64,000 nt of DNA from the NCBI GenBank assembly GCA_963799775.1, contig CAWCYD010000003.1, positions 864,001 to 928,000 of the forward strand. Reading direction: 5' to 3'. Source of the DNA: an uncultured archaeon. Lineage in GTDB: Archaea > Thermoproteota > Nitrososphaeria > Nitrososphaerales > Gagatemarchaeaceae. Under the pieces are notes generated by a model that saw only the letters and a program-made list of their open reading frames with translations, did not search any database and was not told the origin of the DNA. Of the stretch, positions 15,250-17,456 are shown piece after piece. Within the stretch, counting starts at the first letter, position 1, and every line of letters begins with the position of its first letter. Both the position numbers and the translations under genes were made by a program.

Positions 15250-15615
15250 TTGATGGGATACAAGCCCGACGAAACACTCCTGCTTCGATATCTCGGCGCC
15301 AGCCCGACGCTGAGAATCATAGACTTCTTCTTGGACAATCCGCTGTCAGACTACTCGAAGAACGAAATCGCGAAGAACCTTGCCATGAGCCGCGTGACCT
15401 TCTTCAAGTACTGGAAGGAACTTGAGACTTCGGGCGCGGTAAAAGCCACAAGGCACATCGGACGAGCAACGATGTACAAGCTCGACAGGGCCAACGACGT
15501 CGTGAAGCAGCTAATCAAGCTGGACATGACCATTTCGAGAAAGACGATGGAACGAGCGGTCGAAGAGTATCAGAGACCGATCACAGTGAAGTCAAGGCCT
15601 TCTAGGGCCGGCTAG
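15250..15615 (+). CDS. Winged-HTH protein, copy 2
   Basis: Near-identical to 13169-13525; its stop codon lies inside repeat copy A. Confidence 0.85.
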   Translation: MMGYKPDETLLLRYLGASPTLRIIDFFLDNPLSDYSKNEIAKNLAMSRVTFFKYWKELETSGAVKATRHIGRATMYKLDRANDVVKQLIKLDMTISRKTMERAVEEYQRPITVKSRPSRAG

Positions 15616-15644
15616 TCGTGCTCCAAGGCGCCCCAGATCTGGGA
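15592..15644. repeat. Copy A of the 3' arm of the 17252-17456 RNA
   Basis: TCAAGGCCTTCTAGGGCCGGCTAGTCGTGCTCCAAGGCGCCCCAGATCTGGGA aligns by eye with 17247-17299. Confidence 0.85.
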
Positions 15645-15763
15645 CTAGGCTGAGACCCCCCGTGTCTTACTATGGGCGTGGTGACTCCGAGGCCAAACAC
15701 CATCTTATGAGAAATATGGCATTAGATTTATATTCTGGTGATGCATCGTTTGAGGGAAGCGAG

Positions 15764-16015
15764 ATGAGCAACGTGGAGGTAAAGGAGATTGACGAGCAGG
15801 GGCGCCTAATAATCCCGAAGAAATGGAGGAGCATGGTCCTCAAGGGGGACAAGGTGGTCCTGAGACTAAAAGAGAACTCGATTGAGATCGAGCCCTGGAA
15901 GAAGCCCGACCTCACCCGCTTCTTCGACAGCGTGGAAGCCGACGTGAAGAGCGACCTGTCGGACTGGCGCGCCGTGAGGAGGGAGCTCAGGAGGCGTCCC
16001 GATGAGGTTCGCTGA
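15764..16015 (+). CDS. vapB: AbrB/MazE-fold antitoxin
   Basis: IDEQGRLIIPKKWR; overlaps vapC; TTTATA box near 15727. Confidence 0.88.
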   Translation: MSNVEVKEIDEQGRLIIPKKWRSMVLKGDKVVLRLKENSIEIEPWKKPDLTRFFDSVEADVKSDLSDWRAVRRELRRRPDEVR

Positions 16016-16421
16016 CAGCAACGTCTTCGTCCATGCGTTTCTAAAGCCGAGGCGAGACCTCTCAGAGTCGGAGAAAAAGCTGAAGGAGGACGCGAAGAAG
16101 ATAGTCTCCCGGGTCAACTCAGGCGAGAAGGTCATGACCTCGGTGGTGCACATCGCCGAGATAGCCAACATCCTCGAGGACAACCTCGAGGCGGGGGCCT
16201 CACAAGAGATACTCAGGTCCCTCTTGATGAACGAGCATCTGGAGATAGACAGCGTCTCTAGAGAGGACTGTCTGTCGGCGATGGGCGAGATGGAGGAGCA
16301 CTCGCTCGGGCTCAACGACTCGATAGCGCACGCCGTTATGAGGAGAAACGGCCTCGTCGAGATCTACTCGTTCGACAAGGACTTTGACAGGCTCGACGAC
16401 GTCACAAGGGTCAGCCGGTGA
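16002..16421 (+). CDS. vapC: VapC PIN-domain toxin
   Basis: MRFADSNVFV, HIAEI, LGLNDSIA, IYSFDKDFD. Confidence 0.9.
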   Translation: MRFADSNVFVHAFLKPRRDLSESEKKLKEDAKKIVSRVNSGEKVMTSVVHIAEIANILEDNLEAGASQEILRSLLMNEHLEIDSVSREDCLSAMGEMEEHSLGLNDSIAHAVMRRNGLVEIYSFDKDFDRLDDVTRVSR

Positions 16422-16485
16422 AGTTTGAGCTCGAGATAGATGTCAAAAGGGATCAATGGAACCCCCTCGCTGATGAAGCTGAAAT

Positions 16486-16584
16486 GGAACTTTCTCTGTC
16501 CTTCTCTCAAGGGCCTTCTAAGGCCGGCTAGTTGTGCTCGAAAGGAGCCCAACGTCTGGATTCGGAAAAAGACCTGTGAGTCGT
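16486..16584. repeat. Copy B of the 3' arm of the 17252-17456 RNA
   Basis: GGCCTTCTAAGGCCGGCTAGTTGTGCTCG...TGGATTCGGAAAAAGACCTGTGAGT aligns with 17226-17323. Confidence 0.9.
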
Positions 16585-16698
16585 CAACAAGTTTCAGCCA
16601 ACTGAAAAGCGGCGGGCTGGACCGACTGTGACTTTGCAGGCAGGGACGGTGGAGGAAGTTAAATTGGAATTCGAAGACATGGATAGTCGCATAGCGAA

Positions 16699-17091
16699 AT
16701 GGAATACCCAACTCACGATGCTGTCATCAGATTGCACGAGAAAATAATCAAACAATCGGGCGGCCATCAAGGCTTCGTGAGCGTTTCGAATCTGGATTAC
16801 CTACTTGAGACGGCCAGAGACATTGGAGAAGCGTCCCAGGAGGAAAAGGCCGTCGTTCAGAAAGTCGGGTATATTCTCTTCAATTTGGTGAACCTTCATC
16901 CGTTCTTGGACGGCAACAAGAGGACGGCATACGAGGTAGCGAAAGCCTTCCTCAACTTGAACGGCTGGGATATCAAACCCTCAGAAGACGATGCCTATTC
17001 TACGCTAAAATCGATCGCTTCGGGCGAACTGGATGCCCAAGCCACCGAACGCTGGGTAGGAAGGAATTTAAGGAGAAGGCGGAAAGAGTAG
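16699..17091 (+). CDS. doc: Doc-type Fic-family toxin
   Basis: HPFLDGNKRTA (Doc-type Lys variant of the Fic motif). Confidence 0.92.
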   Translation: MEYPTHDAVIRLHEKIIKQSGGHQGFVSVSNLDYLLETARDIGEASQEEKAVVQKVGYILFNLVNLHPFLDGNKRTAYEVAKAFLNLNGWDIKPSEDDAYSTLKSIASGELDAQATERWVGRNLRRRRKE

Positions 17092-17099
17092 AAAGTAAC

Positions 17100-17216
17100 A
17101 TGGCGAAGCAAGTTCAGGCCAGGAATCAGAAAGAGATAGACAGGGATTTCCTAGCCTTGGCTGACGAGAATCTCAAGAAAGACGCGAAGCTTCTCAAGAA
17201 GCTTGCCGAAGTCTAA
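17100..17216 (+). CDS. 38-aa putative Doc antitoxin peptide (below the ORF track cutoff)
   Basis: MAKQVQARNQKEIDRDFLALADENLKKDAKLLKKLAEV, 8 nt after doc; amphipathic LLKKLA end like Phd-type neutralising helices. Confidence 0.65.
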   Translation: MAKQVQARNQKEIDRDFLALADENLKKDAKLLKKLAEV

Positions 17217-17251
17217 GTCACGTTAGAACATCTCTGCCCGCTGCTTTCAAT

Positions 17252-17456
17252 GGCCTTTTAGGGCCGGCTAGTTGTGCTCGGAGGCGCCCAAGATTTGGAT
17301 TCGGAAAAAGATCTGTGAGTTGTGAGCTCTGATTGTCTTGCGAACGTGAGCTGTGAGCTTTGAGCTGTGATTCCGGATTTCTCAGTTCCCAGCTGAATCG
17401 CATTCCTCTTCCACCCCTCGGCTTCCTCTTCCACTCTATTCCGGCTATCCTAGGCC
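17252..17456 (-). ncRNA. Predicted rod-like RNA closed by a bulge-helix-bulge; putative 190-nt circular RNA (17257-17446)
   Basis: 5' arm GGCC-UAGG-AUA-GCCGG (17456-17441) pairs with 3' arm CCGGC-CCUA-AAA-GGCC (17267-17252). Pairing continues inward through several short helices; the loop holds 7-nt repeats. Folded by hand. Confidence 0.7.
17312..17370 (-). repeat. Heptamer array TCACAGC-like (7 units plus 1 degenerate)
   Basis: TCACAGC TCAAAGC TCACAGC TCACGTT CGCAAGA caa TCAGAGC TCACAAC TCACAGA on the minus strand. Confidence 0.85.

Follow-up and report, generated by a model that had tools for sequence, protein, structure and literature searches.

The 64,000-nucleotide (nt) stretch of an uncultured Gagatemarchaeaceae archaeon shown above (contig CAWCYD010000003.1; hereafter the window) harbors an array in which three direct copies of the 3′ end of a structured RNA, here termed A, B and C, alternate with two toxin-antitoxin cassettes. 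Of these, C is the genuine 3′ terminus of a minus-strand RNA of ~190 nt, which is closed by a bulge-helix-bulge (BHB) stem and conserved with covariation in ten loci, while A and B are truncated, nested versions of this terminus, both ending where the RNA ends. We suggest that A and B are attachment (att)-type direct repeats dating from the insertion of two small elements, one after the other, at the 3′ end of the RNA, and that the inserts have since decayed to toxin-antitoxin modules; this interpretation is, in our estimation, about evenly balanced between right and wrong. The array and its flanks comprise the following features, with positions counted from the first letter of the window:

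15250 to 15615, plus strand: winged helix-turn-helix (wHTH) gene, copy 2, forming the left flank of the array; its HTH matches (E-values 8e-4 to 9e-3) all lie under the Pfam cut-offs
15592 to 15649, minus strand: copy A, a truncated copy of the last ~52 nt of the RNA, with the repeat core at 15596-15623 and a BHB half composed of GGCC (15596-99), a GAA bulge, CCUA and CCGGC
15643 to 16511, plus strand: cassette 1, an AbrB/MazE-type antitoxin and a PIN (VapC-type) toxin
15662 or 15765 to 16015, plus strand: antitoxin of cassette 1, with MraZ and MazE_antitoxin matches and an AbrB-family domain at 28.0 bits, just under the 28.3-bit cut-off
16002 to 16421, plus strand: PIN toxin of cassette 1 (E-value 1.6e-14)
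16493 to 16589, minus strand: copy B, the last ~77 nt of the RNA plus ~19 nt of weaker similarity past its 3′ end, with the core at 16512-16539
16585 to 17251, plus strand: cassette 2, a Doc toxin and a 38-amino acid (aa) open reading frame (ORF)
16699 to 17091, plus strand: Doc (Fic/death-on-curing) toxin with an HPFLDGNKR motif (Fic E-value 6.7e-12; DOC_P1 51.1 bits, over the cut-off)
17100 to 17216, plus strand: 38-aa ORF, candidate antitoxin of Doc
17252 to 17456, minus strand: BHB-closed RNA, directly 3′ of the DIP1984-like gene; copy C is its 3′ portion (17252-17323)
17450 to 17930, minus strand: DIP1984-like (DUF6847) gene, matching only positions 4-90 of the 141 in the DUF6847 profile (DIP1984_fam E-value 3e-9, under the cut-off)
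18033 to 18194, plus strand: AbrB-family gene, divergent from the DIP1984-like gene and part of a module common to the related genome G007

The order is thus wHTH, A, AbrB-PIN, B, Doc/38 aa and C with the remainder of the RNA, giving three copies for two cassettes (n+1). A preliminary description of this DNA, made from the letters alone, had proposed the same layout, and domain searches agree with it.

Three nested copies of the RNA 3′ end

A 28-nt core (GGCCTTYTARGGCCGGCTAGTYGTGCTC) was matched exactly by pattern search of the window at 15596-15623, 16512-16539 and 17252-17279, with all three matches on the plus strand, in accordance with the positions first described, while no match was observed in 100 dinucleotide-preserving shuffles. 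The window's own genome (G000; 2,470,806 bases in 3 contigs, 81.67% complete) contains the core at these three window sites only, even where up to 3 mismatches are allowed. Furthermore, a profile built from the three copies recovers the same three sites only (E-values 1e-28 to 3e-23), the next match having an E-value of 1.8. Chance and a dispersed genome-wide repeat, the latter having been raised as a concern in the preliminary description, are ruled out by the absence of matches in the shuffles and the restriction to three sites. Duplication during assembly is likewise ruled out, as A, B and C are not identical and two of the junctions, wHTH/A (15514-15672) and 38-aa/C (17124-17274), are spanned by short DNA contigs with 0 differences. 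These contigs derive from run X1, which is possibly the source sample and as such does not provide independent support. No joints and no alternative arrangement were found in the contigs of X1 and two further runs (X2 and X3), in which large parts of the stretch are without cover.

The relationship of A and B to the RNA was evaluated with a profile of the RNA aligned from ten loci, namely the window, five other genomes and four metagenome contigs. Across the whole genome this profile identifies the full RNA at 17250-17461 (E-value 7e-46), copy B through profile positions 132-208 (16511-16589; E-value 2.7e-9) and copy A through positions 155-206 (15597-15649; E-value 0.07), with nothing below an E-value of 7.8 beyond these. 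Both matches run to the RNA 3′ boundary, and A and B are therefore nested truncations of the RNA. The copies become shorter with distance from the RNA, as had been stated previously, C being of full length, B ~77 nt and A ~52 nt. The 5′ arm of the RNA's closing stem is, by comparison, single-copy even when up to 5 mismatches in 26 positions are tolerated.

When compared with C over the 17-nt BHB half, the next 11 nt and a further 19 nt, A shares 16/17, 10/11 and 15/19 positions and B 15/17, 11/11 and 8/19, respectively. The core (26/28 positions) is thus more highly conserved among the copies than the adjoining 19 nt, and within this shared core the sequence GGCCGGCTAGT is identical in A, B and C. 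Similarity between B and C extends over ~92 nt at 83% identity (C side 17231-17323), and B also retains the conserved CACAG..CUUUUUCC block of the RNA. On the minus strand the BHB half reads CCGGC-CCUA-GAA-GGCC in A and CCGGC-CUUA-GAA-GGCC in B, which has a GAA bulge as well and, in the central helix, a C-to-U change that gives a G-U pair. The hexamer CCCUAA, invariant in 10/10 RNAs, is kept by C alone, with CCCUAG in A and CCUUAG in B; both copies thus carry G at the first nucleotide of the 3′ bulge, which is A in all ten genuine RNAs. Changes at an invariant position are as expected of displaced, unconstrained copies.

Both cassettes are intact and form complete toxin-antitoxin operons in one common orientation, in which the 38-aa ORF may encode the antitoxin of the Doc toxin. 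By eye, TATA-like sequences could be recognized just upstream of the first gene of each cassette, in cassette 1 at about 15738 (TTTATATT) and in cassette 2 at about 16658. The GC content is 0.49-0.59 over 15000-18400, compared to 0.60-0.67 in the neighboring CN-hydrolase gene.

The BHB-closed RNA

The closing stem of the RNA consists of a helix, a 3-nt bulge, a 4-bp helix, a second 3-nt bulge and a further helix, with each bulge on the 3′ side of the central helix. Its two strands, both read on the minus strand, are:

5′ strand: GGCC (17456-53), UAGG (17452-49), AUA (17448-46) and GCCGG (17445-41)
3′ strand: CCGGC (17267-63), CCUA (17262-59), AAA (17258-56) and GGCC (17255-52)

We take this geometry to be the canonical BHB of transfer RNA (tRNA) introns, so that cleavage at the positions assumed from those introns would excise a piece of 190 nt (17446 to 17257). 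A BHB on the plus strand was rejected by inspection against the same assumed geometry, since the complementary strand places the bulges 5′ of the central helix.

The RNA is tied to the DIP1984-like gene wherever the latter is found. This gene is rare, being present in 6/97 genomes of the family, and in all six the stop codon is followed by the same arrangement of UAGG, a 3-nt bulge and 180-195 nt ending in CCCUAA; in the window, the UAG stop (17452-17450) itself lies within the central BHB helix, and this holds for the other nine loci of the RNA as well. A two-arm pattern search located the element in 5/401 genomes of the order, all of which belong to this family, and in four metagenome contigs, in each of which it directly follows a DIP1984-like gene. 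The loci in the relatives are L016 (9942-10154), L017 (9688-9905), L018 (9731-9949), L019 (1144-1349), L020 (9797-9996) and L030-L033. In the ten-sequence alignment, 91% of the cells of the BHB stem are paired, as opposed to 29-50% when the partner strand is slid, and compensatory changes are observed in 8/20 pairs; the observed value was attained in 0/500 shuffles. The central helix is invariant (10/10); pairing reaches 95% in the inner helix and 70% in the outer one, the loosest of the three. No frame within the RNA is open in all six sequences inspected for coding potential, and no Rfam family reaches its gathering score in the RNA region. The conservation with covariation places the RNA itself on firmer ground. 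Closed by a motif of the tRNA-intron type, it is a candidate for cleavage by the splicing endonuclease of a kind rarely met beyond tRNA and ribosomal RNA (rRNA). By eye, an internal hairpin also covaries (UCAG/CUGA in the window and CCAC/GUGG in G007, with the loop NUGRGAA), and a conserved CACAGCUCUUUUUCC block can be observed in the RNA.

The last ~17 codons of the DIP1984-like gene are found in another frame in this assembly when translated in three frames, the break falling at about 17490-17520, and the conserved C-terminus ending in LLDSAIQEANHKIEITA is consequently out of frame. Homologues in G007, G011, G012 and G029 are intact and 158-159 aa in length. The break is either a real frameshift, which would make this copy a pseudogene, or an error of the long-read assembly; the short DNA contigs end at 17503, within the affected region.

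BHB introns beyond tRNA and rRNA have been described in the 5′ untranslated region of HVO_1309 of Haloferax volcanii and in the cbf5 mRNA of Crenarchaeota (PMC7714728). From what that source gives of them, they resemble the present RNA in that a canonical motif is located on an mRNA-linked transcript, so that the enclosed piece is predicted to be excised and circularized. The present motif differs from them, as they are presented there, in that it lies 3′ of the gene, beginning at the stop codon, and in that the piece predicted to be excised is a conserved, structured RNA of ~190 nt. Extra copies of one BHB half do not feature in the available portion of the HVO_1309 and cbf5 accounts (PMC7714728).

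The presence of BHB-compatible halves in A and B had led to the proposal that both serve as alternative splice partners and would give larger circles antisense to the toxin genes. In such a scheme, the endonuclease would act on long minus-strand read-through transcripts, cutting at the single 5′ arm and at B or A, and would release circular RNAs of ~0.93 or ~1.85 kb that are antisense to the Doc and PIN operons and act as regulators or antitoxins. The two halves exist as described; every one of the 13 BHB helix pairs is kept in A, and 12 together with one G-U pair are kept in B. In two-strand folds with the 5′ arm, A (-28.7 kcal/mol), B (-25.0 kcal/mol) and C (-26.6 kcal/mol) are all more stable than the shuffled mean (-18.6 kcal/mol), and A forms the full BHB motif at its minimum. 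The conservation of the 28-nt core above that of the 19 nt that follow could also be taken in favor of splicing, but is equally expected of an att core. The proposal holds less well for B, which alters the invariant CCUA and whose central 4-bp helix is absent from the minimum-energy fold, and the G at the first 3′-bulge position of both copies, where ten of ten RNAs have A, argues against the use of either. Furthermore, no relative keeps an extra arm, and arms C and B are each preceded, in the direction of the RNA, by a conserved U-tract (CUUUUUCC), a type of sequence at which transcription in archaea can end. We consequently consider functional splice partners very improbable, and the integration site the better supported of the two readings put forward in the preliminary description. 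There is equally little likelihood that an endonuclease and ligase would release either the 190-nt RNA or larger antisense circles from one 5′ arm and three 3′ arms. Should this nevertheless be the case, an RNA-circle layer of toxin control would have been built from captured cassettes, and the RNA 3′ end would be both a DNA integration site and a splice partner.

Origin of the array

Direct copies that are nested and anchored at the 3′ end, their number exceeding that of the inserts by one, together with an intact gene at one end, constitute the signature of serial site-specific integration. Insertion would have proceeded as it does for genomic islands that enter tRNA genes at their 3′ ends. 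Both elements would have brought with them a stretch homologous to the RNA 3′ end, over at least ~50 nt in the one with AbrB-PIN and over at least ~77-92 nt in the one with Doc, and recombination within the shared core GGCCGGCTAGT would have restored a complete RNA gene beside the RNA body. Each insertion would thereby have displaced the older 3′ end outward, and the second would have re-used the RNA-proximal copy. The elements may subsequently have decayed to their addictive modules, in the manner of cis-mobilizable elements, or may from the outset have been cassettes that lacked an integrase and were mobilized in trans. The data demonstrate the repeats with their nesting and uniqueness, the intactness of the cassettes, the existence and conservation of the RNA and the single arms at its other loci; that recombination took place, in which order and by which enzyme, is what we infer from them.

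The accretion of islands at tRNA and transfer-messenger RNA genes, with decay to cis-mobilizable elements, provides the closest parallel in the portions of the literature available (PMC5704250, PMC6563490). As set out there, such arrays likewise lie in direct repeats of the 3′ end of an RNA gene and combine an intact gene at one end, n+1 repeats for n inserts, re-use of the site and integrase-less inserts that retain both flanking repeats. Among the 68 thaumarchaeal integrated elements for which the survey gives targets, 39 are located in tRNA genes, 15 are intergenic and 14 lie in 3′-distal parts of genes (PMC6563490). The same source reports arrays that arose through re-use of one site, and imperfect att pairs are listed in its supplementary Table S2. 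The present array differs from tRNA accretion in its target, an unclassified, BHB-closed RNA of ~190 nt 3′ of a DIP1984-like gene, and in its inserts, which are smaller than 1 kb, contain only toxin-antitoxin genes and come with neither an integrase nor an attP partner, so that recombination is here deduced from the repeats. The repeats are also longer, at about 50-90 nt, than the median of 17 bp given for thaumarchaeal elements (PMC6563490). Integration into a tRNA gene proper was rejected, as ARAGORN predicts 0 genes in the window and Rfam searches show no tRNA at E-values up to 10 in 15000-18200.

Several observations weigh against serial integration. No tyrosine or serine recombinase is encoded by any of the 35 ORFs between 13 and 31,890, those of the cassettes included, and the genome's five tyrosine recombinases (PF00589 matches) are located far away, at C3:9, 121, 491 and 1385 kb and C2:21 kb, with the window at C3:864-928 kb. 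A cassette beside a single arm (attP) was not found, either free or placed elsewhere, in the exact-pattern and species-representative collections searched; the exact 24-nt core had 0 matches in the metagenome scan. Among viral contigs, the two-arm pattern likewise gave 0 matches, and no relative of the DIP1984-like protein was found in them. Homologues of both cassettes occur in other genomes, AbrB-PIN in G008 (75% nt identity) and Doc/38 aa in G002 (70% nt identity over 16715-17218), both located elsewhere and without an arm nearby. The distances between the repeats (0.67 and 0.87 kb) fall below every thaumarchaeal integrated element in the size range given by the survey (2.6-140 kb; PMC6563490), while the copies have diverged to 87% and 83% identity to C. 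Contigs of one soil run show the assembled, occupied arrangement only, at low depth. Of the ten RNA loci, that of the window alone is occupied, and since the context of the module differs in every genome, the remaining nine are not orthologous to it and do not amount to true empty sites. The reading draws on this one occupied locus. The repeated integration site of the preliminary description accordingly stands as regards the nested direct copies, the n+1 arrangement and the single arms elsewhere, and falls short as regards a nearby integrase and a second array.

The single arms were established by inspection of the nine other RNA loci, where no second arm was seen within 20 kb in the five genomes (less at contig ends) or within at most 2 kb per side in the four metagenome contigs. 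Whole-genome scans identified one arm each in G007, G011, G012 and G029, and no match in G087.

The absence of an integrase and an attP partner would also fit rearrangement that is not site-specific, in which the RNA 3′ region or whole modules were tandemly duplicated, followed by deletion and replacement, or in which unequal or illegitimate recombination took place between strains, with no dedicated recombinase or att site. The divergence of the copies is compatible with such an origin, as are the variants that they share, which form a mosaic without a clean crossover point in the three-copy profile alignment, and the wHTH junction, which has microhomology only. Yet A and B both end exactly at the RNA 3′ boundary, the cassettes between them are clean, complete and of the same orientation, and no remnant of the RNA body, the 5′ arm or the DIP1984 gene is found beside either copy. 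Random rearrangement would not be expected to yield n+1 nested, 3′-anchored copies, and we regard it as a fairly unlikely source of the array.

At its left end, which is likewise a breakpoint, the array joins the wHTH gene, whose identity is 96% to a paralogue at 13169 and 90% to a homologue in G007. Homology to both stops at 15595-15609, within an 8-nt microhomology (CTAGGGCC). From 15596 onward the sequence departs from the native ends of the gene, as seen at 13516-13539 and in G007; copy A stands in their place and encodes the last 6 codons and the stop of the wHTH gene. By these alignments, copy A has replaced the native tail. The window contains the tail pattern a single time, at 13516, and no displaced tail to the right of the array, where genome searches with the three-copy and ten-RNA profiles also found no fourth arm.

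This junction raises the alternative that the array was built onto the tail of the wHTH gene, through the serial addition of AbrB-PIN, Doc/38 aa and RNA-DIP1984-AbrB, each bearing an arm-like recombination sequence at the same end, in which case the RNA module would be the third cassette. The replacement of the native tail at CTAGGGCC speaks for such a course, and the junction resembles the 3′-distal gene integrations as they appear in the survey (PMC6563490). The DIP1984-RNA module is, moreover, itself mobile or variable, having a different neighborhood in each of the five relatives' genomes, and in G012 it forms an insertion of ~1.2 kb (L018 about 9650-10820) between two genes that are adjacent, and in fact overlapping, in G000 (C3:1769266-1769296). 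By this comparison, the module appears to behave as a small mobile cassette without a recombinase. Three elements added in this way would, however, call for a fourth copy of the arm or for a wHTH tail displaced to the far side of the AbrB gene. Neither was found, and the segment inserted in G012 extends ~85 nt past the arm, which is thus not the end of the module. Accretion at the wHTH gene is in consequence distinctly unlikely.

Cassette arrays of integrons are rich in toxin-antitoxin cassettes. Their cassettes are short, with or without a promoter, and between them a recombination sequence recurs in constant orientation, features that the present array shares. It differs from them in that no intI is found nearby, in that its repeats are not self-complementary attC sites, with only one arm of the inverted repeat being repeated, and in that both cassettes have a TATA-like sequence. 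No dyad symmetry could be recognized by eye in the 28-nt core. With repeats that are direct and a neighborhood without a recombinase gene, integron attC sites and Xer/dif-type sites were ruled out.

If serial integration at the RNA 3′ end is correct, a structured RNA gene other than a tRNA would serve as an attachment site in the Nitrososphaerota. The targets named in the consulted part of the thaumarchaeal survey are restricted to tRNA genes, intergenic sites and 3′-distal gene ends, and the term 'RNA gene' does not occur in those supplementary files of the survey that were searched for it (PMC6563490). Integrated elements would furthermore have been worn down to bare toxin-antitoxin operons between att scars, which would provide a simple route for the growth of archaeal toxin-antitoxin islands.

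Neighboring genes and repeats

The wHTH gene is present in three copies in G000, one of which is located at 13169-13525 of the window. Together with a gene encoding a 93-aa ORF it forms a pair that recurs at 14907-15615 of the window, at C3:1230105-1230781 of G000 and at C1:554709-555417 of G007. The G007 pair lies between the copies of a 17-nt direct repeat, GATGGGCCGGAAGGGAT, and sequences similar to this repeat are located behind the wHTH gene, at 13620 of the window and at C3:1230891. By eye, GATGGGCCGGAAGGGAT resembles tRNA-derived att sites among those in Table S2 of the survey (PMC6563490), while neither ARAGORN nor Rfam identified tRNA genes beside the wHTH paralogues.

Further signs of mobile elements and toxin-antitoxin systems are found at 419-1057, 9598-10524 and 14538-14801. 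These comprise a Cas12f1/TnpB-like TNB-domain fragment, a pair of a FitA-like ribbon-helix-helix protein (just below the Pfam cut-off) and a PIN protein, and a VapB-type antitoxin (PF02697) beside which no toxin was recognized.

Between 10824 and 12974 on the minus strand, an ORF of 716 aa matches NAD_synthase in two stretches, with a weak Hint match (E-value 0.002, below the Pfam cut-off), and may carry an intein. The CN-hydrolase gene (13655-14551, minus strand), the usual companion of the NAD synthase gene, is set apart from it by the wHTH paralogue at 13169-13525.

The intergenic region between the divergent DIP1984-like and AbrB-family genes (17960-18035) contains three copies of A(A/G)GAATCCTT beside the TATA-like sequence CTTTATATTC. 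The arrangement is conserved in G007 (L005 2205-2270), and the copies likely constitute an operator array for the AbrB-type regulator.

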